DNA from: Pecten maximus
Lineage: Eukaryota
Reading direction: 5' to 3'
DNA length: 64,000 bases
Assembly: GCF_902652985.1 (NCBI RefSeq)
Contig: NC_047016.1
Span: 51,770,001-51,834,000, forward strand
The translations under genes were made by a program, and so were the position numbers. Every line of letters starts with the position of its first letter. Within the stretch, counting starts at the first letter, position 1. Below are positions 738 to 60,599 of this stretch, piece after piece. The notes under the pieces were generated by a model, which saw only the letters and a program-made list of their open reading frames with translations, had not been told where the DNA came from and ran no database searches.

Positions 738-3700
738 CCCACGAAAGTGTTCCTCTTTTCCTCCTCTCTGTTTCTTGGATGGTGGAGGCTGACTTAGCTT
801 AATTGATGTATCTGGTGTTGGTTCAGTCTAAAGAAAAAATAGAAAAAGAGAAAAAAAATATGAATTTTTTTCAATATCAACAAGATGTTGAGGGACTCTG
901 TGTTCCACTTTATAAGCCTATACATTAATTCACATCCATAAAGGGCATCCATTGTCCAATTAACTGATCAAAGCTGTTAACTAATTCCCCACCACCTATC
1001 AAATATTTAACAAATTTAGTATAAGGACTAAAAGGAATATGGGGGTTTATCCCACCAACCATCAAATCCTTTAATACAAGTGCCGCCCACCCCTCCCACA
1101 CAGATAATTCTGGAATTGCCTTAAATTATTTGGGTATTAGAAATGCATTTACCCCTCTTCATTTAAACATATTAGAAATGCGTTTACCCCTCTTCATTTA
1201 AACATATCAGAAATGCGTTTACCCCTCTTCATTTAAACATATTAGAAATGCGTTTACCCCTCTTCATTTAAACATATCAGAAATGCGTTTACCCCTCTTC
1301 ATTTAAACATTTGTTCAGACCCACTCCGATTTCCCTGGGCTCTAGAGTCATGATTTCTACACTTTGGACCCCGAGTAGTTTTATACAACATTATTTATCA
1401 TACCCTGTACCTGACAATAAATTCACATTTAAATGTACCATTGTCTTGTGTGTCTGTTTGTATTATCCTTTGACATTACCGACCAGTCAGTTCTGTCATT
1501 GCATTTTAGCTCCACCTATGTTTGCCATAACTCGGATTGTCACATTTTAAAACCAGCATTATCACATTCTAACTTCTTATGAACTATAGCATGATAGCTG
1601 CACATGTAATTTTTGTACAAAACGTAGGTGTTATTTGTATGGAGTTTGTATCATAATCTTGTAAAGATCCAGTTTACATGGCTGCTACTGTAAAACTTTC
1701 TTGAGAGGAACAGTATTTATACAAATTTCTGCTTATAATATACTTCAATATCCATATATATGTATAGTTACACCCAAATCTAAGTTAAAATCAAATTTGG
1801 ATCAAACCTTTTAGAATATCATTTTAAAATCTTGTAACAATTTCCAGAAATAACAAACTATTCACAAAGATCAACTTTATTTATGTGCTAGTTATTATTT
1901 CAAAATCTAGTATACATGTAACAAATTTCTGATATGACAAGATATACTATGATTACCAATCACCAATTAGTTTTAGTACAATCTGTAGAGGTTTTACCTG
2001 TACCGTACCTCAGTAACAGTGCCGTACCTTAGTTACAGGCATGTCTGATATATCCACACTCGGTCTACTGGTGGAGGGACTATATTTATCCACACTCGGT
2101 CTGTTGGTGGAGGGACTATATTTATCCACACTCGGTCTGTTGGTGGAGGGACTATATTTATCCACACTCAGTCTATTGGTGGAGGGACTATATTTATCCA
2201 CACTCGGTCTGTTGGTGGAGGGACTATATTTATCCACACTCGGTCTGTTGGTGGAGGGACTATATTTATCCACACTCGGTCTACTGGTGGAGGGACTATA
2301 TTTATCCACACTCGGTCTAATGATGGAGGGACTATATTTATCCACACTCAGTCTACTGGTGGAGGGACTATATTTATCAACACTCCGTCTACTGGTGGAG
2401 GGACTATATTTATCCACACTCGGTCTACTGGTGGAGGGACTATATTTATCCACACTCGGTCTAATGGTGGAGGGACTATATTTATCCACACTCGGTCTGT
2501 TGGTGGAGGGACTATATTTATCCACACTCAAGTCTACTGGTGGAGGGACTATATTTATCAACACTCTGTCTACTGGTGGAGGGACTATATTTCTCCACAC
2601 TCCGTCTACTTGTGGAAGGACTACAATGTATATTTCTCCACACTCAGTCTACTGGTGGAGGGACTATATTTATCCACACTCGGTCTATTGATGGAGGGAC
2701 TATATTTATCAACACTTGGTCTACTGGTGGAGGGACTATATTTATCAACACTTGGTCTACTGGTGGAGGGACTATATTTATCCACACTCCGTCTACTGTT
2801 GGAGGGACTATATCTATCCGTTCTCGGTCTACTGGTGGAGGGACTATATTTATTTACACTCGGTCTATTGGTGGAGGGACTATATTTATCCACACTCCGT
2901 CTACCGGTGGAGGGACTATATTTATCCACACTCCGTCTACCGGTGGAGGGACTATATTTATCCACACTCGGTCTACTGGTGGAGGGACTATATTTATCCA
3001 CACTTGGTCTATTGGTGGAGGGACTATATTTATCCACACTCGGTCTACTGGTGGAGGGACTATATTTATCCACACTTGGTCTTCTGATGGAGGGACTATA
3101 TTTATCCACATTTGGTCTATTGGTGGAGGCACTATATTTACGTGGTAGTTTTAGTACAATCTGTCGAGGTTTTATCTGTACCATACCTTAGTTACAGTGG
3201 CGTACCTTAGTTACAGTGCCGAACCTTAGTTACAGTGCCGTACCTTAGTTACAGGAGTGTCAGATATATCCACACTCCGTCTTTTGGTGGAGGGACTATA
3301 TTTACTGGTAGTTTTAGTACAATCTGTCGAGGTTTTATCTGTACCGTACCTTAGTTACAGTGCCGTACCTTAGTTACAGGAGTGTCAGATATATCCACAC
3401 TTGGTCTATTGGTGGAGGGACTAAATTTATCCACACTCGGTCTATTGGTGGAGGGACTAAATTTATCCACACTCGGTCTACTGGTGGAGGGACTAAATTT
3501 ATCCACACTCGGTCTATTGGTGGAGGGACTAAATTTATCCACACTCGGTCTACTGGTGGAGGGACTCTCCGCGACTGATACATCCTCCTTGTTTACTCGT
3601 TTCTTCTGTCTTCCCTTCTTGGTACCACTCTTCACGCTGTACTTTGATGGTAACTAAACAAATGTAAAATGTAGGTGAAAGTAAAAATGAATTTTACGGG

Positions 3701-6700
3701 GGAGAATGGAGATTTTGAAATTGTCCACGATTTCTCAATTCATTTTATTTTTACAATGTTTTTTTGTGATTTTAGTGAAAAACAGAACCCCGCAAATAAA
3801 AATAAAAGCAAAGTGAGTTGGGACTCGCATAGATATATAACCTCTATCCTTAAAAGTGATCAAGTGTGACCTTTGACCTTTAACCCTAACAGGTGATCAC
3901 CAAACTCTAATCAGGTGTTGAACTTGAGGCTGTGATGCTATGGTTCAAATTATAAATATGAACTAAATTTGTCAAGGGGGTTCATGAGATATTTCTACAC
4001 AAGCTGTGTATGAATGGATGGAGACACCAAGTGATTAGTACTAATACCACATTGTACCCCCCCCCCCCCCCCCCCCTCCTTACTGGGGTATAAAATCCTT
4101 AACAAATTTCCCAGTCATGGTTTATAGTGTAGAACAACCCTAGCACTGACCAAACTTGGACAGAATCTGCTCAACAGGTAACAAACTTTCTCCATCAATG
4201 TTTTCTTACCTTTTCAAATTCATATTTAAGGTCAGGTGACCATTTGAAAGGCTCTTTGATTTTCTCTCGTAGTCGACGTGGAGCATTGATGTCCTCCTTA
4301 TTGCCCTCCTCCGGACCGCTGCTGGAGTTATCACACTCGGAACACTGCCTGTAAACAACCAGTTTTATCTTTAAAGATCTAGTTCAGTGGCTAAATGTAG
4401 AATCACATGACCATAAGCTTCAGAGATATAACTAGCACACTTTACAAGGCTCGTAAAACGTAGAGTCAAACCTCTGCTGATTGAATCTAAAGTTCATGTT
4501 AGGAGGCATAACACATAACTTAAGGTCATGGTCTTTCAAACTAAGCTCGTAAAAGTGTTACAATTTGATTACAAACCAATTACATGGAGGATACCGACAA
4601 GTGTCTTCTTGTTTATTTACCTCGGTACATTAAGGTGAAATGTTGATAATACAACATTCTAAAAATCAGAACCATTGAAGTAATTACAACTGAATCATGT
4701 GGCATACAAACGAGGACCAATCTTTAGAAAGTGTTCTAGATGCCAGTGTTTCCAGGTTCAGTAGCTTTACTACTAATCCCAGTCACAAAACTTACCAGCC
4801 CATCAGCTTGGTTTTCTTGGGCATGCGAGTGAGTGGTGGTTCCAGACAGCCCAGGTGGTAATACTTTTTACATAGGTCACACTTCACCAGTAGATGTGGA
4901 TTACAGGACTTTTTACACACAGCACACCTGTCAGCAGAACAATCCCAAATGCAATGTTTTCTAAACACAGGTCAAATTGTGATCTCCTTTGAAAATTAAA
5001 TATTTTGATCTAGCCTTGTAAAACTATTTTAAAGAGTTACCAATACTTAACTCTTTTCTACTGCAAAATACTAAACACTCGTCATTTATATCAGATTTTT
5101 AATCGCACAAATTGTTTTTTAAGTATGGTAGCATACATCTTCTGGTCTCCCTATCAAAGTAAGGTAGCACACATTTTCAAGTCTCCTTGTCAAAGTAAGT
5201 TAGCACCCAGCCTTAAGTTTCCCTGTCAAAGTAAGGTAGCACACATTTTCAAGTCTCCTTGTCAAAGTAAGGTAACATACAGCCTTAAGTCTCCATGTCA
5301 AAGTAAGGTAGCATACAGCCTTAAGTCTCCTTGTCAAAGCAAGGTAGTTCACATTTTAAAGTCTCTCTGTCAAAGTAATGTAACATTAAGCCTGAAGCCT
5401 CCATGTCAAAGTAAGGTAACATACAGCCTTAAGTCTCCCTGTCAAAGTAAGGTAACATACAGCCTTAAGTCTCCCTGTCAAAGTAAGGTAACATACACCC
5501 TTAAGTCTCCCTGTCAAAGTAAGGTAACATACACCCTTAGGTCTCCCTGTCAAAGGAAGGTAGCATACAGCCTTAAGTCTACATGTCATAGTAAGGTAAA
5601 ACACAGCCTTAAGTCTCCATGTCAAAGTAAGGTAACATACAGCCTCAAGTCTCCCTGTCAAAGTAAGGTAACATACAGCCTTAAGTCTCCCTGTCAAAGT
5701 AAGGTAGCATACAGCCTTAAGTCTCCCTGTCAAAGTAAGGTAGCATACAGCCTTAAGTCTCCCTGTCAAAGTAAGGTAGCATACAGCCTTAAGTCTCCCT
5801 GTCAAAGTAAGGTAACATACAGCCTTAAGTCTCCCTGTCAAAGTAAGGTAACATACACCCTTAAGTCTCCCTGTCAAAGTAAGGTAACATACACCCTTAG
5901 GTCTCCCTGTCAAAGGAAGGTAGCATACAGCCTTAAGTCTACATGTCATAGTAAGGTAAAACACAGCCTTAAGTCTCCATGTCAAAGTAAGGTAACATAC
6001 AGCCTCAAGTCTCCCTGTCAAAGTAAGGTAACATACAGCCTTAAGTCTCCCTGTCAAAGTAAGGTAGCATACAGCCTTAAGTCTCCCTGTCAAAGTAAGG
6101 TAGCATACAGCCTTAAGTCTCCCTGTCAAAGTAAGGTAGCATACAGCCTTAAGTCTCCCTGTCAAAGTAAGGTAACATACAGCCTTAAGTCTCCCTGTCA
6201 AAGTAAGGTAGCATACAGCCTTAAGTCTCCCTGTCAAAGTAAGGTAGCATACAGCCTTAAGTCTCCCTGTCAAAGTAAGGTAACATACAGCCTTAAGTCT
6301 CCCTGTCAAAGAAAGGTAGCATACAGCCTTAAGTCTCCCTGTCAAAGGAAGGTAGCATACATCCTTAAGTCTCCATGTCACCGTAAGGTAGCATACATCC
6401 TTAAGTCTCCTTGTCAAAGTAAGGTAGCATACAGCGTTAAGTCTCAGTGTCAAAGTAAGGTAGCATACAGTCTTAAGTCTCCTTGTCAAAGTAAGGTAGC
6501 ATCCAGCCTTAAGTCTCTCCATGTCAAAGTAAGGTAGCATACAGCCTTAAGTCTCCCTGTCAAAGTAAGGTAACATACACCCTTAGGTCTCCCTGTCAAA
6601 GTAAGGTAGCATACAGCCTTAAGTCTCCCTGTCAAAGTAAGGTAGCATACAGCCTTAAGTCTCCCTGTCAAAGTAAGGTAGCATACAGCCTTAAGTCTCC

Positions 6701-9700
6701 CTGTCAAAGTAAGGTAACATACAGCCTTAAGTCTCCCTGTCAAAGTAAGGTAGCATACAGCCTTAAGTCTCCCTGTCAAAGTAAGGTAACATACAGCCTT
6801 AAGTCTCCCTGTCAAAGTAAGGTAGCATACAGCCTTAAGTCTCCCTGTCAAAGTAAGGTAGCATACAGCCTTAAGTCTCCCTGTCAAAGGAAGGTAGCAT
6901 ACATCCTTAAGTCTCCATGTCACCGTAAGGTAGCATACATCCTTAAGTCTCCATGTCAAAGTAAGGTAGCATACAGCCTTAAGTCTCCCTGTCAAAGTAA
7001 GGTAGCATACAGCCTTAAGTCTCCGTGTCAAAGTAAGGTAGCATACAGCCTTAAGTCTCTCCATGTCAAAGTAAGGTAACATACAGCCTTAAGTCTCTCC
7101 TTGTCAAAGTAAGGTAGCATACAGCCTTAAGTCTGCCTGTCAAAGTAAGGTAGCATACAGCCTTAAGTCTCCGTGTCAAAGTAAGGTAACATACAGCCTT
7201 AAGTCTCTCCATGTCAAAGTAAGGTAGCATACAGTCTTAAGTCTCCTTGTCAAAGTAAGGTAGCATACAGCCTTAAGTCTCCGTGTCAAAGTAAGGTAAC
7301 ATACAGCCTTAAGTCTCTCCATGTCAAAGTAAGGTAGCATACAGTCTTAAGTCTCCTTGTCAAAGTAAGGTAGCATACAGCCTTAAGTCTCCGTGTCAAA
7401 GTAAGGTAGCATCCAGCCTTAAGTCTCTCCGTGTCAAAGTAAGGTAGCATACAGCCTTAAGTCTCCCTGTCAAAGTAAGGTAGCATACAGCCTTAAGTGT
7501 TACTCACTGGTTAATGATGGCAGGAGGTGAGACACAGGGTACACTATCGTGTCTTGTTGGGGTTTTGACTGGGGCTCTCTTGGTATTGAACATCTCTGGC
7601 ATAGTGAGAGGCTGAAGGTGATAAAAAAATCCCACATAAATAGGTACAGTTTCAGGGTTCACTGGGATACAATCAAATAGATGTAGTACATGTATTCAAA
7701 AGCCACATTTAAAACCCATGTGAATTTAGCCCTTAAATGAAAATCCTGTTTCCTGTAAAGAATATGTTCTGGAAGGTTTGTGAGGCTAGACCTTAGATTT
7801 AAAATTTCTTCAATTTTATTCTTATTTTAAACCTAAATATCACTTTGAATTTTACTTCTTCTCTCTGATTTCTTAAAGTTAGGCTTTTCTGCAATCAATC
7901 TAATCAATCTAATGCCAAAAGTCAAGAGGCGATTTCTGAATATCAAATCACCAATAATCTATTATTTCAATTAATCAAGTAGAAATATTCAGTTCAGTTG
8001 AGATGGATCTGGAGATGCTGACCTTGACCATCATCTCTGTAAGCATGCTGTACATGTTCGATCCCTCCTGTTTCAATCGCTGTGAGTGGTCCTTTAGGCG
8101 GTCAATATCAGCAAGCAGCTGTTTCAAATAGAAAACCAAGGTAAACTAATTATTTAAGTTTCCATAAACAACTGTAGTCAGTAATTGCGAAGCTCACCAG
8201 CAGCAGCCATAGGAATATGCTTATGCCACCGGTAATGAAAAGTTTCAGAAACTTATTCCAATATAGAATTTCAATGCCAAATTGTTTCATTTTATGCACC
8301 AACAGAATATATTTGTTGAGATAAAAACAATATTTTGCCTGTATCTGTTACAGTAGTAGTCATCAACCTGGTCATACTGTCGACGTAAGTTGTTCTCCTG
8401 TTTTTGTAGTATCCTGTGTTTATTTACCTCACCGCACTGTCAACGTAGGACGTTCTCCTGTTTTTGCAGTACACTGTTTTACTATTTACCTGGTTGAACT
8501 GTCAACGTAGGACGTTCTCCTGTTTTTGCAGTATACTGTTTTACTATTTACCTGGTTGAACTGTCGATGTAGGACGTTCTCCTGTTTTTGCAGTACACTG
8601 TTTTACTATTTACCTGGTTGAACTGTCAACGTAGGACGTTCTCCTGTTTTTGCAGTACACTGTTTTACTATTTACCTGGTTGAACTGTCGATGTAGGACG
8701 TTCTCCTGTTTTTGCAGTATACTGTGTTACTATTTACCTGGTCGAACTGTCGACGTAGGACATCCTCCTGTTTTTGCAGTATACTGTACTATTATTTACC
8801 TGGTCGAACTGTCGACGTAGGACATCCTCCTGTTTTTGCAGTATACTGTACTATTATTTACCTGGTCGTACTGTCGACGTAGGATGTTCTCCTGTTTTTG
8901 CAGTATACTGTATTATTATTTACCTGGTCGAACTGTCGACGTAGGACGATCTCCTGTTTTTGCAGTATACTGTGTTACTATTTACCTGGTCGTACTGTCG
9001 ACGTAGGACGATCTCCTGTTTTTGCAGTATACTGTGTTACTACAGTCGACGTAGGAAATCCTCCTGTTTTTGCAATATACTGTATTATTATTTACCTGGT
9101 CATACTGACGGCGGAGGATGTTCTCCTGTTTTTGCAGTATACTGTGTTACTACAGTCGACGTAGGATGTTCTCCTGTTTTTGCAATATACTGTGTTACTA
9201 CAGTCGACGTAGGACGTTCTCCTGTTTTTGCAGTATACTGTATTATTATTTACCTGGTCATACTGACGGCGGAGGATGCTCTCCTGTTTTTGCAGCATAC
9301 TGTTCTGTGTAACATTCTCTGTGATGTTTCTTTTGATGTTATCAATCTTACTGTTCCTTTCTGCAAAAAATAAAAATTCTCAACAATTTCATACTGGAAA
9401 ACTTATCTAGTCATATTTTTTTTACATAAATATATAAATTTTATTACGACAATAACCAAAGACATCTCATTCGATATTCATTTTTATGATCATTTCATTC
9501 TCCGTTATTGTACATTTAAATTATTCAACAGAAAAGGACAAATTAACATACAGAATGAAATAAATCATTATATAAGTTTTACTTTCGTGTCCTAAATTTG
9601 TCTTGTTGACAAGACAGCTGCACTTACCAAGGTAGTAGCTGATGAACTCCACAGACAAAGCCGGAGATATATGCGTTTTCTTGCGCATCTCCTGTTTCTC

Positions 9701-33490: not shown

Positions 33491-36400
33491 TCAACTGAAA
33501 TCGGAAGTATCCTCAAACTTTGTAACTTTGACAATACAATTGCCGTCAAGGTGTTTCTCTAGATTCTTCTGTGTGACAAAACCCTCGCCGCAGTGGTTAC
33601 ACTCGTTGCGAGACTTGAGGATGTGAATTTGGGACTTCATGTGGCGGTTCAGATCCGACTGTGTTACTCCCTTATAATTACACACCTTGCAACAGAACTC
33701 CCGTATACCTACAAAAGACATATACCCTCTGTTATATATTTGGCAAAACAACTTTTGATTTTTGTCTAAAAATCAGATGATCACTTAAATTCACATAATA
33801 TCTTGCTGAACATTCCATTTGAAGTATTTTGTTTATAAATTTCATTAGTAAAATATCATTTTCAAGATTTCAAACTTCACATTCTTATACATGAAATTGT
33901 AATTGTAAACATACTGTTTATACTTTGGGGCTCTCAAATTGTGTACTTTCATGAATACAGATAAGAACAATAATGTATTGGCAAATGTTTATTGACTGTG
34001 ATAGAATCTGCATTTAGTGTTATAATAACTTAGTAAAATACTTTCAGTGTGAAAAGCCCCAAAGTTTGTTTTTGCCTCTATAATACGTACATCTCGAGTA
34101 TGTATAAGAGAGAAAAGCAATCTGTTATCCAATAAAATTGTCCCCTACCTTGATGCCTCATCATGTGGACCTTGAGTTGGCTATTAGTGCGAGCAAAATA
34201 GTCACAGTATTTGCATTTGTATGGTCGGATATCTGTCAAAAGAACAACAGATTTTAGCAAATAATTTACAACAATTATAGATATGACAGGTTCAAACACA
34301 CATCCTGTTCATAATTTTGGCCATAATTTTTGACATGTTGTATGCAAACACCTGTCCAATGTGTTTTGATCTAAATATCTAATTCTAAATTAAAATTAAA
34401 CCACAATGTGCAGGCTGATATATGTACTATGGTCAAAACATAAATTTGTCAAAGTTTCTATGATCTTTTCTAAGGCCTAACAACCTGCCCAGTGGAAATT
34501 ATAAAACAATGAAGTAGGATAGAGCAAATCTCCTGGACAGCTGGGTCTATTCAGAAACCTAGCAGACATTCTAAACTGATAGTATGTAGGGAGGCTAACA
34601 ATCTAAAACATTTAAATGAGAAAATATTTATAACAAAATGGCAAACTGTCAATCAAGTTTCATGTTTTCATATCTATTTTTGATGGAGAGAACCAAGAAA
34701 ACATGAAGGTGAGTCAAGTTCACAGTGTACAAGGAAATACAGTTGGAATGTGATTTGAGCAGGCCACCATAAGATATGTAGACTAATATTACACATGATA
34801 AAATGGCATGGTTTTTATACCTTCATGGAAGTCCATATGTCTGTTGATGTCAGAGTATGAGAGGAAGTCTTTACTACAGAACGGACATCTGTACACCTGG
34901 CGACCATCGGTCAAGGTCATTGGCTTACATACTTTGTCCCTGTTGACCGGAGCATTCACAATGGGTAGTCTGAGAAGTGAGAAAATTGATGTTAGTGATA
35001 ATAATCAACTGTGAAGGGAAATAACTGGATTATCTCCCCTAGATGTGTGTTGATCAATCTGATCAATTTATTGTAAATATTTTACTCTGTTACACAAGTT
35101 AAAGGATTTCCATAGGATAACTTCCATCATCTTAAACATAAGCGATGCAAACAATTGGCTTGTAATTGTTGATAAAAGTGAAGAAATTAATATAGATTTA
35201 AATAGTAAAAAATATTCCTGATTTTGAATATATTATTTATGGAAATAATTTGGCATAAAAGAGATAGATATTGATATATTTGAATTATATATACAAAATA
35301 TTTAACAAAAATTACGAAGAAATATGTACCTTGAGTGTGTGCGAGAAAGGGAGGTAACTTTGCGCCCGTCAGCAGAGATCTGGCTCCATGTGAAGCCGGA
35401 ACACGAGGTAGGTGGTGTTTCGTTTGGCGACCACTGGACACGAGGGAATCCGACCAATGTGTCCCGGTCACTGCCCTCTGTGTTGGCAGGGGAGGGATCT
35501 GAAGACAGAGGGGTGGAGCTATCTGAGGGTGCTGAGTCCTTGCCTGAAATTTGATTGGCTGAGTTTGCGACCTGCACCATACCGATGATGTTGCCAGGAA
35601 TGGGGGAAGGGAAGGCTGAGTTGGAAAGAAGCATCATGGGCTGTGGCTGACCTGAAGTAGATCCACTACCGCTAGTCAGAATCATCTGGCCGGGGTTCAT
35701 CACAAACTGAGCCACTTGGGGATTTGCGTTGACGAGGTTAGATGTTGCTGAAGTAGATGTGGAAGGCACATCAGCTGTAGGGGAAAGTGGTTCCTGTTTG
35801 ATCTGTACACCACCAGGGAGTTCTATTCTTCCAGGTAAGTTCGCTACAGCAGCTCGGGCCGCCTCACCGTTGATGAGGAGTCGGGTAGGGATTTGGATCG
35901 GAACACGGGCAGCAGATGTTGCAGGGGCCGGAATTGACACCTGCAATGGAGCTGGAGGTGGGATGGAGGCATTATGGAGCTTGACAGGTTGAGATGACTT
36001 GCGTTTGGACTTATTCATTTCCTTTCCTACTGAGCGCCTCGGTAACACAGGAGTAATTATCCCATCTTGGCTGTTTGCCTCGCTGCTCTCCTCGGAATCC
36101 CGTTCTGACCACACATCCAACAAACGTGGACCGCCATCAACCTCTGTGTCATCGTCAGGGCCACAAGGCATCACCACAGTGACATCCTCTTGTATACCTT
36201 CCTTGATGAGTAACTCTCGTGCACGTTCCTCTTGTGACTGGCGTGTAGTGTCATCAACCTCTGTGTCAGATTTTGGACCCGCCTTCTTACTTAGGAGGTT
36301 TGATAAAAGTGAGTGCTTGGTAGAAGCTTTGATATGGGGTTTAAGTGTCTGGTGGCTGTCTCGGAGCCCGTGGAACAGAGCTAGATGTTGACGCAGAGCC

Positions 36401-39400
36401 GTGAACTCTGAGAAACCCTTGCCACACTCCTGACAATAGCACTGTTTGTGTCCACTATGTATCTTGATATGTTTGAGCAGGGAAATCTCCCTATGGAATG
36501 ACTTGCGACACACTAGGCAAACATACGAACCATTGCTGTTCTTTCGATATTTCAATCCACGCCAGAACCGGCACAACATCTCATTTTCACGATCCTCGCT
36601 ATCTTTCTTAAATATATCATCCTTGTCAGACTTGCCCTCAACTGGAGATGAACTACCTTCTCTCTCATCACTGTTCTCATCGTTACCTTCTGATTTCACC
36701 TGAATTCCTGAATCCATGTCAGAGTTCGACGTGTCGTTGTCGGCGTCGTTATTTTTACACTCGTTCTGTTGTCTTTTACTTGCATTGTCTACCTCCGACG
36801 GATGTCTTTTCCTTATATGTTGCATCACTTGGTTCTTAAACCAGAATGAGGCTTTACATAACTGGCACTGAAAAATCACAATATCTTTTTCAAAATGCAT
36901 TGACAAGTGGCACTGCACCTTACTTAAGTAATTAAACACCTTTCCACACAAGTAACACTTGTACAGGCACATGTCTTTACCGTTGGAAAGATTAACACCA
37001 TCCAATCGAGTGATGAGTACCGTCTCGTTCCTGATGCTGATTCTATTTTTAGTAAAATGAGACCCATGAATGATCTCTGCCCCGACCATACTGGATCCAT
37101 CTTTGATCATTTCTGTGATGTCTGGTGGGTCCATACTGTCAGAATTTTCCAACAAGTTTTTTGAGTTGGCCGACAGGTCAGTATTAGCCAACATCCCCTG
37201 ATTTTCGTTTGGTGCCTTATGTTTGAACAACCCTGTTGATTCATCTAACTCTACTTCACCATCCTGAAACGAGCTGGTGTAGCCACAACTGTAAAAGACT
37301 TTATTTCCCTTTTCCACTGTATAACTGTCTAAGTTTGGTATGGATGACGTTTCGTCAGAGTCACCATCTTCCATGTCCACCTCGGAGCCATTGGAAATTA
37401 TAGGTTTTGGAGTGTTCTCTACGTTTTGGTGAGCCATTTTGGTTGCTAGGGAGTGTAGATTGCTTTGTTTTTTCAGTCGGAGAAAGCGTTCCTCCAGCCC
37501 CGGACTCAGCTCGATGTCAAATCCGTGTGCTGACTTCTTGTGGTACAACATGCTGTTCTTGGCACGAAATGGTTTTCCACATATCTGTAAGGAAAAAGAC
37601 GTTTCATTAAGATATTAATTAAGGTAATATCAGGGATCATTGTAGGGCGAGCTCTAGGGATTTTCCCCCATAGTTTTCCAGAAAATCTTAATAATTTTTT
37701 TTTTTTTTTCTCAAGTTTATAACAATGCGGTTGACATTGAAAAATAAGGATTATAAAGTTGTGCCAACAAGTTCAAGGGAGTAAACAATGTATGCATTTC
37801 AAAACCCTATCATCAGTTTTTGCCAAAATAAAACAACATAACTTAAAAATATTTTGAAAACTTTTACTTTTAAATGCATACATTGTTTACTCCCTCGAAC
37901 TTAATGAATTTTTGAAAGTGTATAACTTTACGCAGATCTACTACCTGTAAAATCCCCAAAATCATCTCTGCTGAATATATAACTTTTATTGTACAAAAAA
38001 TTAAAATGTGTGTACAAAAGATCATAATTAAGATGGAAAATGAATAAAGAGTTGAAACAGATAACAGACAAGTTTGGTCCTACAGCTCAAGTTCTGTCCC
38101 TACAGCTCCAGGCTATGGCCATAGAGTAAGTTCTGTCCTACAGCTCCAGGCTATGGCCATAGAGTAAGTTCTGTCCTACAGCTCAAGTTCTGTCCTACAG
38201 CTCCAGGCTATGGCCATAGAGTAAGTTCTGTCCCTACAGCTCCAGGCTATGGCCATAGAGTAAGTTCTGTCCTACAGCTCCAGGCTATGGCCATAGAGTA
38301 AGTTCTGTCCTACAGCTCAGCTAGGCCTAGTATTCTTGTCCTACAGCTCCAGGCTATGGCCATAGAGTAAGTTCTGTCCCTACAGCTCCAGGCTATGGCC
38401 ATAGAGTAAGTTCTGTCCCTACAGCTCCAGGCTATGGCCATAGAGTAAGTTCTGTCCTACAGCTCCAGGCTATGGCCATAGAGTAAGTTCTGTCCTACAG
38501 CTCCAGGCTATGGCCATAGAGTAAGTTTCTGTCCCTACAGCTCCAGGCTATGGCCATAGAGTAAGTTCTGTCCCTACAGCTCCAGGCTATGGCCATAGAG
38601 TAAGTTCTGTCCCTACAGCTCCAGGCTATGGCCATAGAGTAAGTTCTGTCCTACAGCTCCAGGCTATGGCCATAGAGTAAGTTCTGTCCTACAGCTCCAG
38701 GCTATGGCCATAGAGTAAGTTCTGTCCTACAGCTCCAGGCTATGGCCATAGAGTAAGTTCTGTCCCTACAGCTCCAGGCTATGGCCATAGAGTAAGTTCT
38801 GTCCCTACAGCTCCAGGCTATGGCCATAGAGTAAGTTCTGTCCCTACAGCTCCAGGCTATGGCCATAGAGTAAGTTCTGTCCTACAGCTCCAGGCTATGG
38901 CCATAGAGTAAGTTCTGTCCCTACAGCTCCAGGCTATGGCCATAGAGTAAGTTCTGTCCTACAGCTCAAGGATTTGTCCTTCAATTTATTTATTTTATGA
39001 AAGTCTAGGGAAGCTATAGTGATTGTCAGTTTGTATTATGGTTTGCATTATTATTTAAACATTTATTTCAAACCTGATGCATGCATTACACACATTAAAA
39101 TCATGACATAAAGACACTAGTCATTGATATTTACATCACTGCCACACACATTACACTTTCTGTGTGAATAATCGCACCACACTTTCTGTGTGAATACTCA
39201 CATCACACTTTCTGTGTGAATACTCACATCACATTTTCTGTGTGAATACTCGCACCACACTTTCTGTGTGAATACTCGCACCACACTTTCTGTGTGAATA
39301 CTCACACCACACTTTCTGTGTGAATACTCACACCACACTTTCTGTGTGAATACTCACACCACACTTTCTGTGTGAATACTCACATCACACTTTCTGTGGG

Positions 39401-41356
39401 AATACTTACACCACACTTTCTGTGTGAATACTCAAACCACACTTTCTGTGTGAATACTCACACCACACTTTCTGTGTGAATACTCACACCACACTTTCTG
39501 TGTGAATACTCACATCACACTTTCTGTGGGAATACTTACACCACACTTTCTGTGTGAATACTCAAACCACACTTTCTGTGTGAATACTCACACCACACTT
39601 TCTGTGTGAATACTCACACCACACTTTCTGTGTGAATACTCACACCACACTTTCTGTGGGAATACTTACATCACACTTGAAGGGACGTTCCCCAGTGTGG
39701 CACATCATGTGTCGTTTGAGGTCGCTTGGTTTGAGGCAGAGTTTGCCACAAATGTAGCAAGTACGGTCACTCTGACACTCCATATCGGCTCCACTCTCTG
39801 GACTCGTGCTTGAATCCTTCCCATCCTGCCGAATCATACCGTCCATCATTGTTACATCTGGTGAGTCGTCCCCTTTGAAGCGCTTAGTTCCGTCTGGAGA
39901 GATAAGCTCAGCTCGCAGTTGATCCATCTCTAACTTTCGCTTCCGCATGAGAGAGTACTTTTGGGATATGTTACTGTTTTCACTTTTAATGCCATGGTGC
40001 ATGAACTGATGATACTGAAGACTTCGTTTGGCTTTGAACATACGACTGCACATCTGAAATAAAAAAAAGTTCATAAATTACAGCCTCAAATCACTTTATA
40101 AGATAAATTTAGTAACCGATTCTAAATGAATCATAACTAGACATTAACCAAATTTTGATTACTTAGAAGCCAATTCAGGGCTTTTTTAGGGCCATTAATG
40201 GGCCCCCATTCCCAATTGAAATTATTTCCTATAAGCCAAATCCCCAAAACTTGCAGTTTACTCCTAAAACTCTTTCCAATTCACCACTTTTCTTCCCAAA
40301 CGAGAAAGTCTAATTTCAAACTGTGAGAAAAAGCCCTGCAATTATAATTGAGCATTCTGCTGAAGCCATGAACTGGTGTTTAATGTTGACGTACCTTGCA
40401 TTTGAATGGACGTTCCCCAGTGTGTTTACGGATATGTCGCTGGAGGTCTGCTGGGCTTTTCTTTACTACAGCACAGAACTCACATGTCCTGTCCTTCAGA
40501 GAGCTGTTGAATCCTTTACTTAACATGCTCTCTTCCCTGTTGTTCACTTCCTTTTTGGTTTCTCCTTCATCGCTTAACTCATCGATACAGAGCTGGCCTT
40601 CATCCTCCTCCTCCTCCTCCTCCTCATCTAACTCCATCATTTCATCGTCATCTTTTTCACTTTCATTGTTTTCTGAATGTTTATCCTCTATCTCGACATT
40701 ATCTAGTTCTAAATTGGAATCACTTTGAATGTCATTGTCACCGGAATTTTCCTTTTCCTCCATTTCTTCCTCCTTATTTTTTTCGTCTTTATCCTCAACA
40801 GCCAACTGATCACTAACGTCACCTTTATCATCCACACTGTCAGTTTCTTTATCTGACGGAACTTCCTTTAACTCTCCTGCTTCTTTATTCGAAGTCTCGT
40901 TGATAATCAACTCTTCAGGTTCATTGTCAGATGCAGCATCTGTTGTTGCAGTAATGTGGTTATCATCGGAATCTCCTACTTTTTCCTTGTCAGAGGATTC
41001 ATCTTCTTTAGGAATGTTTTCAGTACTATCTACTTTTATATCCAGCGACTCATCTACATTTTCATCTGACTTATCACAGCCTTTCTCTATTTTTGTATCT
41101 TCCTCCTCTTCGTCCTCACTCCCCTCACTGATCTCATCCTCCACATGTACTTCCTTCTCTTTCTTTTGTTTCTCTCTCTCGCTCTTCTTTGGGGTAATGT
41201 GACCAGGGGTCTTCCCCGATGGAGGTGCTCCTTTACTACGAGTTACTCTGGTTGTACGTATTGGTGTCACAATGTTACCATTGTCATCCGAAATTGCCTT
41301 TTTGTGAACAGAAGACTTTCTTGTAGATTTTGTGGGGCTTTCATCTTCTTCTTCAC
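33491..41356 (-). CDS. Core (six 3' coding exons) of the C2H2 zinc-finger gene
   Basis: Supported by long ORFs 40380-41366, 39640-40074, 35302-37551, 34078-34299 and 33491-33751, which contain canonical C2H2 fingers. The exon 34821-34969 (CPFCSKDFLSYSDINRHMDFHE) was found by hand. Confidence 0.95.
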
Positions 41357-44300
41357 CTGTGGACACACAAATATACTATTTAGAATATTGTGAGCAGTAT
41401 AAATAAAACTGTTTCCAAAGTGGAAAACATCCTGTTTTCTTCCCACACATGTAAAATCACAGTTTCATTTGTTTTTGTTGTTGATGGCTGTCGTGATTAC
41501 AAGAATAAGACTATTACTTAATTCTGTTTCTGAAATGTGTAAAGAAGAAGAAGAAGAAGAAGAAGAAGAAGAAGAAGAAGAAGAAGAAGAAGAAGAAGAA
41601 GACAGTGAAAAAAATGAATAAATGCACATTCATACAATATATATATATTTTTTTTTGTGTATATATATAACTATTGATGGCACGGTAAACAAATGAAGAG
41701 GACAGGTGTTGGACTCTGAATATAGATCTATAAAACATATCTTCATGCAAATGACCAGTACTTCCAGCCAGTTGATGTCCATGCAAGCCGATCTCAATCT
41801 TGATTTATTGATCAACATCAGACTTTTAGACACCCAGACACATGCCCCCAGCAATATTCACTACCTGTGATGGCTGAAGCAGGTGCTTACAAATTTGTGA
41901 CTTTACATACATGTGTTTTGCATGCCTTGCTGTTAACCACTGACTGTGACATCCTCAAACACCCCGATCAACCTCTATTTTACCATCATAAATCACACTC
42001 AGATCAACCTCTATTTTACCATCATAAATCACACTCAAAGTCGAGTAGAATTGTTCCATGTGGATGTTCTCATTTACTTTATTGTTATCAGAAATTTTCT
42101 TTATTATTTTCAGAAATTTAAGTAGACCATTATTAAAAGTATGTTTCGGAATACCCCCAAAACAAATCTGATTCTTGTGATTGATGGACAAGCATTTTCG
42201 ACATGTTTTGACCAACCATATTTCTGGAAAATATGGCAATCTGACATCTGCTATCATTTGACTTCATATCAAGTGTGAAGATCAACTGAAAACCATGGTA
42301 ATTAACTTACAAGGAAAACATAATCCATATCCCCTAATATCATACAAAGGTTGTTTTCAGTAAAGTATTCATTTTTTCAATGAGTAAATTTAGTTTTAAT
42401 CTTTAAACTTTATATTTTTCTTTGTGAAACAAATATATTAAGGTAAACACAAATTAAATATCTTAGAAACCAAACAAATAGGAAAATTCTTTTTGTTGAC
42501 CTCTGTTCCCCTCCAGGTATTTCCTTTTTGTTTGTTTTATTCACCACCATTTCTCGTTGTTTGTTTTTATCCTACAGCCTGAAGTTGTGTAAGAATTGTG
42601 ATCCTTTGTTTATTAACACAATGATATTAACATCAGTGACTGTTAAATAAACAGCCTTGAGGCAGAGAGAACCGTTAGATGTTTAACAAGGCATTGTTAA
42701 TTACTCAATAGGTGACCTGTATAATTAAAACGCTCCATTTCCAGCCTCTTATCTCAATTCATTCATCAATGAGAATCAATTACTGTAACAGTATTATGGC
42801 AGAGCTGGCCTATCTCCCATCACCTACTGATTGAGCGAATTAGCCCCCCACCGACACCCTCCCCTATAATCTAACTCAGATCAATTAATCATTAGACCAC
42901 AACCTAAAAGTGTTAAACATGCCTGATTGAACAACTAAGTGGTACTCTTAATTAATTACCCAATTAATAGAGCTAAATAAGTAACTAGAAGTACTTGGGT
43001 TTATCAATTCTTTTTTTTTTTTTGAAATGTTTTACCTCTAATTTGTTATTTTAGTTTTTCATATCTTTTTTGTATTTTGTTTTTAAATAATCACATGATA
43101 ATTATAAGGTTCTGTATAAACTTAGTGGACAAATAGTGACCATGTTATCATTATTGGGTAAGCATCACAAACCAAACCTTTTGGACCAATGACATATATT
43201 ACTAGTATCATTATGGGGGGAGTATCATACCCTATTATGTTTCTGTCAAACCTTGGACGTCACCTTGTAAAACAGAATACATGTTGTGGGGAATACAACA
43301 AAATATTTTAATATTGACAGGTAAACTACATCATTTTACTCCAGTGACTAATGGACAAGTCATCAATTTAAGCAGGTAAATATACTTTACTCCAGTAACT
43401 AATGGACAAGTCATCAATTTAAGCAGGTAAATATACAGTAGATTACAACTTATTGTATGTCATGATCTTATCGTAATATAAACTTTTTATGTCACATGAT
43501 GTACCTGACATCTTTTTAACTTCCACCTGTAACTCTCCCCACTTCTCATTGATTTTTAAGATTTGAAGAATCTGGCTCGATTACAAACCATCCAAAGTGT
43601 AACATCCTAAAGTACCAAGCTCACTTATAGTTCATGTAGATTTGTTAACTAACAGTCAGAAAGTAAACTTTACATGTTAAAGCTGACTTGTCAACACTAA
43701 AATATCTAAAAGTGATATACTTTCAATTAGCTCATCATTCATACTTTTTTTAATTAGTTACTCTTCGACTGTTATGACAATGATAAGCAATGTTAATAAC
43801 TTACATATATATCAATACAACATTTAAGTCATTGAAAACACTATTTCTACCATCTGAAATATTAGCACCTGAATAGGTAACTGTACTTATTATACAGGTG
43901 AACACAAGGAAATCTAAGTATTGTATGCATGTGTATACACAACAGTTACAGCACACATACACACATATATATACATATATATAGGATTACCTGAACTTGA
44001 GGAGTGAGATGTGCTGTTTTTTCTCACATTGTCTGATGTAGGTGAAATGGACATGTTTACTTGTGGCCTGGTACGTAAATCCCTCACGTGTCACGTATAA
44101 TTCTATATATAACCCAGCATGAGAACAGGTTCTTTCTGAATGTCTGACCACTGAGACCACTGACCAGCTATTGACCAGTCCAGTCTAACATTGTGCGTGT
44201 AAAACGTTTACATTAGCCTCGGGTCACGCTGTGCGTCTCCACATTCACATGGCCAGGTATAAACACACATACCTGGTCGACCCAAGGCTGAGAATGCATA

Positions 44301-47300: not shown

Positions 47301-50300
47301 TCCACAGTAAAACCCCCCTCATGCTTCCAACTTGGCCACCAAGCGTGATTTGTAGAAAATAAAATCTTAAAAAGTGTCGTTATTGATGTAAATAAAACTT
47401 ATGTTTAATCTAATTACTTTGAGCCCCAAGATTCTTTAAAATTGTTCCAAATTTTACAGCATACTTCATACCTGTGACATTATAAGAATACAGAGTTGAA
47501 GATCTTTGATTTCAACAAATATGCTAGCAGCTTCTATATAGCTATCTAGAATGTTGTTACAATATAGCTATCTAGAATGTTGTTTGTAACAATGTGGGTT
47601 CCAGGGACACTTACTTTAAGTAGTCAGGGATGGTCCCATATAAACATCTGTTGTAGAAAATAAATGTTATGATTCCATTTAACTCATATAACATTAAGAG
47701 TAGGTCAAGGTCAGAGATATATATTTATATATAACTATAGATGAAAAGTTATAGCACTTCAACAGCTTTTATGCTCTTCATGTTTTTGTTTTGTAAAAGA
47801 TGTTTCAATACAAATTTAACATTGGAAAGTTACTAAGGCAAGGTAATTTTTATTGAACAAATATATCAACCCTTATCACATTTATTCACAGAACGATTTA
47901 GGTAAATGCCTAAATGACCATTTAAATATGTAAATGCATTACAGTGATCATGATGTTTGTCTACTGATAACAAGAATGTTTTCTCAGAAAAAAAAGATAA
48001 AGAAAAACTTAAAACTATGATGCAGTACACCAAACTAATGTATAGTAACTAATGTATGAGTGTGGACAGGTCTAAGGAAGGCCATCTTAGAATTCAGAAA
48101 TGCTACAACCTGTTATTATAACTACCCCTACACTAGCTCTCTTGGCCCTTTTCAGATCACATCACATTTCTGATAAAGATTTAATATTTTTTGTAAATGT
48201 CAACATCTACACCGACTATACTTTTCAGTAAAATTTCAAAATGTCTGCACTACAAATACACTCACCAGACTGGACATGCCATTTGACTTGACCACCTGCA
48301 CTGACCATTACATAAATAGCACATTAATTTGTGAAGTACAGTACGCGTCAGGTGGTATGGTCCCCAATCACCGCCACAGTGGCGAGGTCTAATCCCTTCC
48401 ACTCACTCAGTCGGTTGCATGTCGGTTGAAACACCGGCTGACACCGGCTCAAAACCCGAGTGTTCACCTGTTTACTGACACCGCGCGACACGGTGTGGAA
48501 GAGTGTTGGGGATTAGTGGAACAAAGGTCCTGATTCGTGATTGACAGGTACACTGCCCGATACCGTGGTGTGTTTTACCTATTGGAACATACTGTACGTT
48601 GTCGTACGGTACATGTACTGTGGCTGGACTTACATTTTGTCCTTTTAGTATCCCAGCCCGGTGTTGAGAAAAACGGAGATTAGTTTTTATGTAATGAAAT
48701 CACGATTTATACTAGTGATACTAGTGATACTAAAGAAGTATTGTGTTGTAAATATTTAATTAAATCCTAGCTAGATGAGTAGCATAAATGTTTACCGGGA
48801 AATGAAATACCGACACCCAGAAAACAAAACAGTATATAACATTTTAACGATCTCGGGAGAAGCTAAATTCAACACTATGTTGTTATTTGTATCTTGCACT
48901 GTATTTTGTTATAAATCGAAAGTTAAGGTTACCAAATAGGCTCAATTTAAGTTATAATCTAAATAAGAATAAATAAATCAACCCCTTCTATACTCATACT
49001 GAACATAATTATGTTGTGTACATGTAAATATTTTACCGCCTTGGTGTTTGTGCTATTTATAGCATTATTGTGATTGGAGAGCGAGCGAGTAAATTCCGCT
49101 CGGCTTTCGAGTGTGTTGCACTGCTCTATCTACACTTCGAAGTAAGTCTATTATAGGGTAATACATCCTAATTAATTTACGACGAAATATCATGACAACT
49201 GCGATTTGGTTAGAGCCACGGACATATTTCTGCTAGCTATTGTATATTACATTTCGTGGGACTCGTTTTAAATGTAGTACACAATGTACAAATGTACATT
49301 TACATACACGATGTCTTCTAGTGTTCCAAGTATATCCATGTTTGAGTAAATAATAAGAAAACAGCCTCGTAAAGTTAATATTTAATATACATTAAACATG
49401 TGCGAGCATATTAATGTTTTCCCTTAGCATTTTTTTTTTATAAAGTGAGCTCATTCAGAAACCCTTTCACACAACTCGCGCACGATTCTAAATTTGTAAT
49501 AAATAGATCTATATATTATGAAATAAAAATTATCTTTCTTTTATACATATCATCATGCACACATGTACACTTTTAATCCTTCGTGGATATATTGATATAT
49601 ATCCTGAAGTAATACATATTTCTTTTTAAGACACTATCGATGTCTTCACGTACACACATTCTCACATACAGGTATACACATGCACGATTTTAAATATCGA
49701 ATCTTTCATAAATATAAATAAACAATTAATCTCATTTAGACATTATTAAGTTTTCTAACTCATACACATTCTCAAATTAACATTTACGATTAAATACAAT
49801 GTATAACAAACAGATGTTCGTTGGATGCATATTATTAGAAATAGATCATTTGCAAAGTAGCAATAATGACAGTAAAGACAAGTAAATTGTCGAATTTTCG
49901 AAAGGCAATCTGCCCCTTTATCAAGACACAGGTAAGTTTCTGGCTGAATGTGTGCAATATTTACGTGTCGATCTGTGACCAGTGCATTGTACCGTGACTA
50001 GAGATACGTGTCGCTCTGATGCGTCGATTGACACTCACTGCACCATTTGTGGGCGTGGTTTAAAAATCATGGATTGTGATTGGTTCGTAACGTTGGCAGT
50101 ATTACTCGTGTCAGCGATCAAATGTTTAAAACATATGGTTACACAATTCAAATCAATATCATTTAAATGTTATAAATACAAATAATTTATATGTTATAAT
50201 ATACAAATTATTTATAACATTTACATGTACATGTGTATATAGCCTGTATTTTGTACTGCAAAACGAGGTTCATGTGTTTTCGTGTGGCGAGAAGCGATGG

Positions 50301-59300: not shown

Positions 59301-59972
59301 ATCTCATTTCAATATTTTTGTAAACAGCTTTATAGCATTTAAAATTATTACCCAACTATTTTAAAATTTGACACTACAATGGTATTTTGCTGCAATCTCA
59401 AACCATTATTTGAGATCATTGAAACGCATTAGCTAAACCGGTTTATAAATAGATTTGTTTCTGTGGTTTCACACTAAAAATCCATACGTGTATTAAATTA
59501 GCATTTCGAGGCGTGCGTATGCACGTTTGCATGGTTGTCACGTTGGCATGATCATGAATGAGCCTACACAAGGCTTGGCTCACAGGTAGGTAACAGGCCT
59601 AGCACACAGCTGACAACCACTGACCTAGAATGTCACCGCTGACCTCGTTCATGTGAGCGACGACGCACAAACATGCACGGTGCGGTTTGCGATCGCGCGC
59701 ATTTAGCAACGATAAAGTGTCAAATGGTGGAAGAAAAATCGATCAGAAAATCAATCTAAAACTATAGAGAAATTTGTTGTGGTTCCAGCAACCAGTTTCG
59801 ACCATCACGTCATGCGCGCACGCGTAATCTACATGCATGGCAAAGCAGATCACACCCAACACGAAGCAGACAACTTTTTGCCACTGACAGAGCGTAAATA
59901 AGGATATCAATAAATATACTTACTACAAATGTGTTGGGGCTTTGATTGCTTTCTTCTCGACGACTTCGGCAT
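33491..59972 (-). CDS. Multi-cluster C2H2 zinc-finger transcription factor (~1366 aa; 11 C2H2 plus a terminal C2HC finger) with N-terminal NuRD-interaction motif
   Basis: Exons 59924-59972 (inferred first exon, phase 1), 40395-41356, 39670-40053, 35330-37584, 34821-34969, 34149-34232 and 33491-33708. They total 4101 nt with a continuous frame and GT-AG boundaries. Features include HTGERPFKC linkers, finger pairs, a C-terminal 4-finger cluster, an acidic N-terminal region and a Pro/Ser-rich spacer. The link to the distal first exon is inferred. Confidence 0.8.
38070..38970. repeat. 38-39-bp minisatellite, ~22 copies, in a zinc-finger gene intron
   Basis: Unit agttctgtccctacagctccaggctatggccatagagta, containing the 12-bp palindrome CTATGGCCATAG. 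Confidence 0.95.
39152..39678 (-). repeat. 26-bp minisatellite = last 9 nt of a zinc-finger exon + 17 nt donor, ~20 copies
   Basis: The true junction is aagtgtgat|gtaagtattcccacaga. The copies read aagtgtggt|gtgagtattcacacaga. Confidence 0.95.
40176..40338. mobile_element. 163-bp MITE with 5-bp TSD (CAATT)
   Basis: CAATT|CAGGGCTTTTT ... AAAAAGCCCTG|CAATT. Confidence 0.8.
41542..41601. repeat. (AAG)n microsatellite, ~20 units
   Basis: Perfect aagaagaag run. Confidence 0.97.
43991..44054 (-). CDS. Candidate alternative proximal first coding exon of the zinc-finger gene: MSISPTSDNVRKNSTSHSSSS
   Basis: aaacATG start and CAG|GTAATC donor. Phase 1 is compatible with the acceptor at 41356. A GC/CpG-richer region lies immediately upstream (44200-45200). 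Confidence 0.45.
45319..45475. repeat. ~56-bp tandem repeat x3
   Basis: tgaaaatttctgtattggggttatgagttatctttataaataactttaacttgact repeated. Confidence 0.85.
48339..50797. mobile_element. 2.46-kb non-autonomous DNA transposon with TA TSD
   Basis: TA|CAGTACGCGTCAGGTGGTATGGT ... ACCATAACACCTGACGCGTACTG|TA. The subterminal motif taatccc(t/c)t(c/a)cactc is repeated at both ends. No long ORF. Confidence 0.85.
53320..54410. mobile_element. 1.09-kb DNA transposon derivative with 5-bp TSD (GGACT), nested in the hAT remnant
   Basis: GGACT|CAGTGATTTTTT ... AAAAAATCACTG|GGACT. It shares ggcccc / ttcccaatt subterminal motifs with the 40176 MITE. Confidence 0.8.
54951..55545. mobile_element. MITE family A copy 3 (internal deletion of ~115 bp)
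   Basis: Same TIRs and TA flanks. It is nested inside the hAT remnant. Confidence 0.93.
56485..56605. repeat. ~43-bp tandem repeat x3
   Basis: gatgtttcaccacggcatttaagttcactatagggggatgac repeated. Confidence 0.85.
59924..59972 (-). CDS. Distal first coding exon of the zinc-finger gene: MPKSSRRKQSKPQHIC
   Basis: caaaATG context and a consensus GTAAGT donor. Phase 1 matches the acceptor at 41356. The peptide matches the RRKQxKP motif, and the surroundings are CpG-enriched and promoter-like. Confidence 0.75.
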
Positions 59973-60599
59973 TTTGATTTGTGATGATGACAGATCTGAG
60001 GCACGAGGGAAGTGTTTAAGTCAGGTACACACACACACAGCTGAGTAAGCCTCGTCTCCCACCACCGTCGTCTTCTCCATGTTGTCAACTGCATGCTGGG
60101 ATTGTGTTAGCACGTGTGCACGAGACCGGATATTTCACGTATTGTCAGGTGCTTGCGTGAGAGAGTCAAGTTTACGGTATATATATACGTTAACTATCTA
60201 CCTGTGTAAGGCCTATGTGCTATGTTATACGCGTAAGCACTTGTCACACATATACAACCACATGGAGAACTCAGAAGGAAGCCAAGCAGGGTGAGTTTAT
60301 ATTCGATACCACACGTAAATAGAGACACGTGCATATATCGGCAGATCTGTCAGATTCTGAAGTTGAAAATTCTGCAATTGATGTGTTTTTCTTTTGAGAG
60401 TTATCAACCGAAATGGTAGGCATACTGAGTGAAAGTAAGTTAACGAGGCAATGGTGTCGGATGATGAAATAGTTCAACGTGGACGATTTGTTTTGTTTGG
60501 GAGGGGAACAGTGGGAATCTTGTTGTCTAGATGTTTACTAGTTTGTTGGTGGTGGGATTGGGCATACAGAGTTATTGTTAATTATTTACGTTTCTTGTT

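Follow-up and report, generated by a model that had tools for sequence, protein, structure and literature searches.

A remote first exon opens a twelve-finger gene with two NuRD-type motifs in the scallop Pecten maximus

A short reading frame on the minus strand of Pecten maximus contig NC_047016.1 ends in a splice donor far upstream of a body of zinc-finger exons, and it encodes a motif of the kind that recruits the NuRD complex. The questions are whether this frame is the true start of the zinc-finger gene and what its motif would do there. We analyzed the 64,000-nucleotide stretch that contains it (positions 51,770,001 to 51,834,000; here, the window), and coordinates are those of the window unless a contig is named. 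Our reading is that the frame, exon 1A, is the first coding exon of a 12-finger gene of an unnamed family and that the protein likely recruits NuRD via two RBBP4-binding motifs. We put the probability of this reading at about 0.75.

Exon 1A is the spliced start of the zinc-finger gene

The features that define the gene are as follows.

59924..59972, minus strand: coding part of first exon 1A, MPKSSRRKQSKPQHIC plus 1 nt, phase-1 donor GTAAGT; start of XP_033733233.1
41357..59923, minus strand: intron 1 of the motif-bearing isoform, 18,567 nt
48266..48308, minus strand: alternative first coding exon, motif-free, within intron 1; RefSeq isoform X3, XP_033733234.1, ATG at 48308
43991..44054, minus strand: alternative first coding exon, motif-free, within intron 1; RefSeq isoform X1, XP_033733232.1, ATG at 44054
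40395..41356, minus strand: exon 2, acidic and poorly conserved region, finger 1
39670..40053, minus strand: exon 3, end of finger 2, finger 3
35330..37584, minus strand: exon 4, end of finger 4, fingers 5 to 8, family-specific blocks, internal motif
34821..34969, minus strand: exon 5, finger 9
34149..34232, minus strand: exon 6, finger 10
33491..33708, minus strand: exon 7, fingers 11 and 12 (the last a CCHC finger), stop codon

Exon 1A runs from an ATG at 59972 to a donor at 59924, and we take this ATG to be the start codon because an in-frame TGA lies 17 codons upstream. The exon ends in phase 1, which is compatible with the acceptor at 41356. The preliminary description, made from the letters alone, had joined these two sites, and a transcript bears the joint out: RNA contig 3 of run X1 covers 59922 to 60291, and its loose end is exon 2 at 41354 to 41325, with 30 of 30 letters identical. 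Bases 59923 and 59922 of this contig fit either side of the joint. Exon 1A is thus the genuine spliced start of the scallop zinc-finger gene. The same description called the exon tiny and remote. Remote it is, given the length of intron 1, but "tiny" holds for the coding part only, as RNA cover continues upstream to 60291.

It is important to note that the junction was taken from the loose end of a contig and not from one continuous alignment over both exons, and that its basis is a single contig from a single run together with automatic gene models. Between 59500 and 60500, two of four runs (X1 and X3) gave contigs; the X3 contig ends at 59934, short of the junction, which was therefore seen only in X1. 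Runs X2 and X17 gave none, which is no evidence of absence. The runs were assumed to be RNA, and the spliced joint is consistent with this.

Seven GT-AG exons yield a stop-free frame of 1366 amino acids with 12 C2H2 fingers in five clusters (2-2-2-2-4). The product is identical to RefSeq XP_033733233.1 (P0001 in our set), named "ras-responsive element-binding protein 1-like isoform X2," and exon 1A is therefore already part of the automatic RefSeq annotation. It is one of three annotated alternative first exons in the scallop, and the other two, of isoforms X1 and X3, are known here from RefSeq gene models; a start like that of isoform X1 is present in three other scallops. Among 17 species with several records, nine have records both with and without the N-terminal motif: three scallops, an oyster, two clams, Lingula, Lineus, and M. 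edulis, the last through a truncated model. The gene appears to be single copy in the scallop genome, judging from its last exon, for which the next-best genome matches are unrelated poly-finger genes and no paralogue was seen.

Several features of the protein and the window were recorded along the way. Finger pairs 1-2 (residues 308 to 357) and 3-4 (residues 436 to 485) share their recognition residues (D3/R6, then S3/Y6), which suggests an old internal duplication. Fingers 1, 3, 9, and 11 carry Asp3/Arg6, a combination that points to GC-containing triplets under the general recognition code, and with low confidence these fingers may target such triplets. Family-specific non-finger blocks lie at about residues 484 to 503, 645 to 676, 1176 to 1184, and 1205 to 1217; they comprise a helix-like segment behind finger 4, a beta-rich segment ahead of finger 5, a PRVQW word, and an SLSRTHSR word. 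Exon 4 further holds an acidic [VI]T[VI]V[ML]P block (about residues 928 to 940; 28 of 38 species), which we take to resemble a SUMO-interacting motif, and a psi-KxEP site (about residue 1060; 18 of 38 species), presumably of the SUMO type. Minisatellite arrays with periods of 26 to 62 occupy 2051 to 3140, 5121 to 7498, 8366 to 9303, 38185 to 38971, and 39153 to 39678, and those with a 36-nt period give rise to long spurious open frames.

On its upstream side, exon 1A faces a second gene.

59973..60261, no strand: gap between the two start codons, 289 nt, under continuous RNA contig cover
60262..60290, plus strand: opening coding exon of a gene for aspartyl-tRNA synthetase, with donor GTGAGT at 60291; the remaining exons fall outside the window

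At 60291, the contigs of both runs show a further loose end, whose sequence is absent from the window and maps behind an acceptor on the plus strand at G000:C2:51846812, 16.5 kb past 60291. Exons downstream of that point match aspartyl-tRNA synthetase models in four of four pieces tested, and motifs of the enzyme were also seen. With this mapping, the loose end is assigned to the synthetase gene and not to a further 5' exon of the zinc-finger gene. The two genes likely share a bidirectional promoter, and their 5' ends would overlap or abut; the contigs are unstranded, so they do not place the start sites within 59973 to 60261.

Conservation of the two motifs in the family

Homologue searches recovered family members from bivalves, gastropods, cephalopods, annelids (Owenia, with fragments from Helobdella, Lamellibrachia, and Ridgeia), Lingula, two nemerteans, Limulus, Centruroides, a millipede, and two crustaceans. 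Members have finger sequences and non-finger blocks in common, and 152 of 313 stored proteins passed the block profiles. None of the proteins that passed was a named one from an insect, nematode, cnidarian, or deuterostome, with the proviso that many matches are unnamed and that the word-based search may miss distant relatives. When C-terminal finger clusters were scored against that of Pecten, members reached 354 to 702, compared with 68 to 191 for ten other finger proteins.

Two stretches of the scallop protein resemble sequences that bind NuRD.

59931..59960, minus strand: N-terminal NuRD-interaction-type motif SRRKQSKPQH, residues 5 to 14, consensus from PMC3020727
35977..36012, minus strand: internal NuRD-interaction-type motif KSKRKSSQPVKL, residues 990 to 1001, in constitutive exon 4 and hence in all three scallop isoforms

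The N-terminal motif had been assigned to the FOG/SALL/BCL11 type. RRKQxxP is indeed found, at residues 6 to 12 of a spliced, translated protein with an upstream in-frame stop, but its register is shifted, with three additional residues ahead of it relative to FOG and SALL. This extension is present in bivalves and Haliotis, while annelid, brachiopod, nemertean, and several gastropod members have the canonical MSRRKQ start. In the FOG-1 structure, most contacts come from R3, R4, K5, and Q6, and the next two residues face the solvent (PMC3020727). Since internal copies of the motif also bind (PMC11602157), the three-residue extension should be tolerated.

How much weight can the motif itself bear? 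M-x(0-6)-RRKQxxP occurred by chance in 1 of 150 simulated windows and [RK]RKQxxP in 9 of 150, and a genome-wide scan with a degenerate DNA pattern gave 55 matches versus 42 in the control. Because the genome-wide pattern is so close to background, the motif is weak proof by itself, and the case rests on the transcript and on conservation. Of 38 named lophotrochozoan species in four phyla, 25 have [RK]RKQxxP within the first 15 residues of the protein; the species are not independent, as they include five Mytilus, four Haliotis, and four scallops. Mean identity in alignment A1, whose 21 rows were selected before the internal motif was noticed, was 0.59 over residues 5 to 15 and 0.08 over residues 17 to 300. 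Of the human proteins with RRKQxxP, 19 of 23 have NuRD interaction records (bioRxiv 2025.06.23.660971). A PDB search with a 24-residue frame around the motif, in a set that leaves out short peptide chains, gave no match. From its sequence and conservation, we infer that the N-terminal motif would dock the protein on NuRD.

The internal motif conforms to the consensus RK(x)xxPx[KR] for internal sites (PMC11602157) through R993, K994, P998, and K1000 and, like such sites, lies in an internal linker. It aligns with K419, R422, K423, P427, and K429 of ZNF512B and has a hydrophobic residue at the position of F430; in an alanine scan, R422, K423, P427, and K429 of ZNF512B were essential (PMC11602157). 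Mean identity in A1 was 0.42 over residues 990 to 1002, compared with 0.13 to 0.15 in the flanks. A further alignment, A3 (30 rows), was drawn mostly from carriers of the internal motif, so its invariant columns are not an unbiased measure, and we relied on A1 instead. As background, 161 non-family proteins, mostly other zinc-finger matches and together 197,847 residues long, contained RKxxxPx[KR] at 4 sites.

The internal motif was found in 30 of the 38 species, both motifs in 20, and at least one in 35. The N-terminal motif alone is present in four heterodont clams, and the internal motif alone in four heterobranch snail genera: Biomphalaria (15 records), Physella (6 records), Lymnaea, and Aplysia. 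Tegillarca and two cephalopods have neither; their records are without a matching start, and the internal site is degenerate. Neither motif was found in any of six named arthropod species, several of whose records are short or partial.

The RBBP4 pocket and the reading of the motifs

All 11 pocket residues that we checked (E41, E126, N128, E179, Y181, E231, N277, E319, K376, E395, and N397) are kept in the scallop RBBP4 exons, and the scallop genome has an MTA R1 exon. The first domain exon of RBBP4 occurs twice with near-equal scores (L007 on G000:C1547 and L008 on G000:C5), and the second copy is probably a redundant haplotig. Both motifs are kept within otherwise divergent regions, and together with the kept pocket residues this supports docking on RBBP4.

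We modeled residues 972 to 1008, covering the internal motif only, in complex with a stand-in RBBP4. This stand-in, L029, comes from a metagenome contig and agrees with the scallop exons at 369 of 411 residues. The complex scored 0.79, while the best of three controls scored 0.01. Among the pairs used to calibrate such scores, 51 of 78 solved and 2 of 108 mismatched ones attain the mark (71 of 105 and 2 of 126 in eukaryotes), a calibration that excludes peptides. Contact agreement between runs was at least 51% and partner pLDDT at least 48, and the contacts fell on residues 992 to 1002 of the 37. R993 was modeled against Y181 and N277, K994 against E126 and N128, and K1000 against E41 (human numbering), as in 8TX8; K990 and pocket residues E179 and E231 are absent from the confident contacts. 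Due to the similar RBBP4 complexes that have already been solved, the passing score may reflect memory, and the model speaks to likeness and not to binding. With this qualification, the internal peptide is predicted to fit the RBBP4 pocket.

Under our reading, the fingers would bring the protein to DNA, and Arg-Lys-x3-Pro peptides from exons 1A and 4 would insert into the acidic pocket of RBBP4 and so recruit NuRD, with deacetylation and repression as the usual output. The exon 1A isoform would then offer two RBBP4 ligands and the other isoforms one. NuRD holds several RBBP4 copies, so the exon 1A isoform would bind by two hooks and the others by one, and promoter choice would tune avidity for NuRD and not switch NuRD off. 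A more specific proposal is that both motifs, the constitutive internal one and the N-terminal one supplied by promoter choice, engage two RBBP4 subunits within a single complex. First-exon usage would then set the avidity, and lineages would have retained one hook or the other. This proposal is tentative, and we give it somewhat less than an even chance. An avidity effect has been raised for FOG-1 (PMC3020727).

Alternatively, only the N-terminal motif might bind RBBP4, with the internal basic patch being half of a bipartite nuclear localization signal (NLS) and promoter choice acting as an on/off switch for NuRD, as in Ush-A/B. Many molluscs have a basic pair 10 to 15 residues upstream of the internal [KR]RK, and R982 is kept in 66% of A3. 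The pair is absent, though, from several RKxxxPx[KR] carriers (P0005, P0017, P0084, and P0170). Further, the best-kept position is Pro998 (80% in A1), a proline that an NLS does not need, and the complex model picked residues 992 to 1002 from among 37. The internal consensus does have a low match rate in human proteins, 21% (33 of 156 RKxxxPxK proteins have NuRD records; bioRxiv 2025.06.23.660971), and the internal region of ZNF512B also contains an NLS (PMC11602157). On the other side, the four heterobranch genera with only the internal motif and the four heterodont clams with only the N-terminal one look as if the hooks were interchangeable. On balance we consider this alternative unlikely.

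Another possibility is that the motifs bind RBBP4 in Sin3, PRC2, or CAF-1, or bind MTA directly, or that the NuRD they recruit supports activation. RBBP4 is common to several complexes, and the motif of FOG-1, which has a role in activation as well as in repression, binds MTA-1 too (PMC3020727). Against this, PRC2, in which the RBBP4 pocket is blocked, was not pulled down by ZNF512B (PMC11602157), and Ush-B, a protostome protein, binds dNuRD through the same motif (PMC7891773). We regard these alternatives as improbable.

Identity of the family and its proposed place among NuRD clients

The preliminary description could assign the fingers to no known family, and our searches agree. In a tree built from 124 columns, a long branch with support of 91/83, a value under the starred support level, separates the 27 family rows from the outgroup, which comprises only 10 rows, themselves on long branches, and includes no full-length human factors. 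Neither this tree nor the homologue searches gave a characterized orthologue. Pfam matched only generic C2H2 families, and both Atlas searches returned only unrelated generic finger clusters. On this sequence evidence, the gene belongs to an unnamed family of molluscs, marine worms, a brachiopod, and non-insect arthropods. Database names scatter its members wrongly, as RREB1-like, ZNF236-like, sal-like, PRDM16-like, or Xfin-like.

Four known identities were considered and rejected. The SAL box is absent from the scallop protein, as the preliminary description had noted; the true SALL is a separate gene on contig C11, and the SALL finger cluster falls outside the family. A conserved finger helix word that we take to be an RREB1 marker is absent from the protein and has one match on contig C11. 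Mollusc ZNF236 groups outside the family, and its best segment is 34% identical over 112 amino acids, matching finger by finger and not collinearly; ZNF236-type proteins have about 25 to 29 fingers and none of the six family signatures. FOG/ZFPM proteins have several GATA-binding CCHC fingers, whereas the scallop protein has only one CCHC finger, the terminal one, which presumably lacks most GATA-contact residues.

That the family is a heavily rebuilt orthologue of a characterized vertebrate factor, with ZFP64 the best candidate, is quite improbable. In its favor, one finger, finger 10, resembles part of the ZFP64 finger structure (2dmd, E of 2.9e-16 for the chain), and the tree is without full-length human factors. 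Against it, CTCF and ZFP568 score at least as high in those PDB searches, and the homologue searches gave no named vertebrate protein that has the family-specific blocks. The family fingers also lie in five separate clusters, while ZFP64 has a tandem finger array and is not known to carry the N-terminal motif. A presumed ZFP64 helix word has no true match in the scallop genome.

The family, read as one of NuRD clients, can be set beside those already described. FOG-1/ZFPM and Drosophila Ush-B (RBBP4 complex 2XU7) have the N-terminal RRKQxxP and dispersed fingers in common with the scallop protein, which differs in its finger sequences, in having only its last finger of the CCHC kind, in its second, internal motif, and, as in other bivalve members, in the three more residues ahead of the N-terminal motif. 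In Ush-B, the motif belongs to only some isoforms through a different N-terminus (PMC7891773), much like the isoform-specific exon 1A. SALL1-4/spalt proteins have a short, remote, motif-bearing first exon and clustered paired fingers, as here, and SALL2 likewise has alternative first exons with (E1) and without the motif (PMC7937961), but the scallop protein has no SAL box. ZNF512B (RBBP4 complex 8TX8) resembles the scallop protein in having K-x-[KR]-R-K-x3-P-x-K-hydrophobic between finger pairs, within a linker of poor conservation; unlike the scallop protein, it has the internal motif only, with Gln after RRK and C2HC/C2H2 finger pairs, and is described from vertebrates. BCL11A/B, ZNF423/521 (Oaz), ZNF296, and ZNF827 have the N-terminal RRKQxxP, and residues 2 to 12 of BCL11A equal scallop residues 5 to 15 at 9 of 11 positions (BCL11A sequence from bioRxiv 2025.06.23.660971); their finger number and layout differ, and no specific finger similarity to them was found in PDB or Atlas searches. 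With ZNF236 and RREB1, the source of the automatic RefSeq names, the scallop protein has generic KPSDL-type fingers in common.

Neither the motif class nor a tiny remote first exon is new, and the exon layout is ordinary for the class. Across invertebrates, orthologues of ZNF423 start with short exons of this kind (bioRxiv 2020.03.09.984518), and the scallop genome has four further short MSRRKQ start exons, all on G000:C11. One of them, MSRRKQANPRPLK with donor GTAAGT (L099, C11:3669880, minus strand), has RREB1-type fingers about 38 kb downstream of it on its own strand (L096, C11:3631219, minus strand), and scallop RREB1 may carry an N-terminal NuRD motif. Of the other three (L097, L098, and L100), one lies about 61 kb upstream of SALL fingers, and two would start other genes. 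A search by identifier and by topic, outside subscription papers and supplements, found no published description of the family or its two-motif design; supplements may list these genes.

In the sources available, descriptions of the NuRD-docking motif concern factors of vertebrates and the direct orthologues of these in flies (Ush and Oaz). If our reading is true, the family would stand as an independent NuRD client with deep conservation across molluscs, annelids, brachiopods, and nemerteans, and its two motif classes, with lineages keeping one or both, would offer a natural test of multivalent RBBP4 binding for NuRD selectivity.
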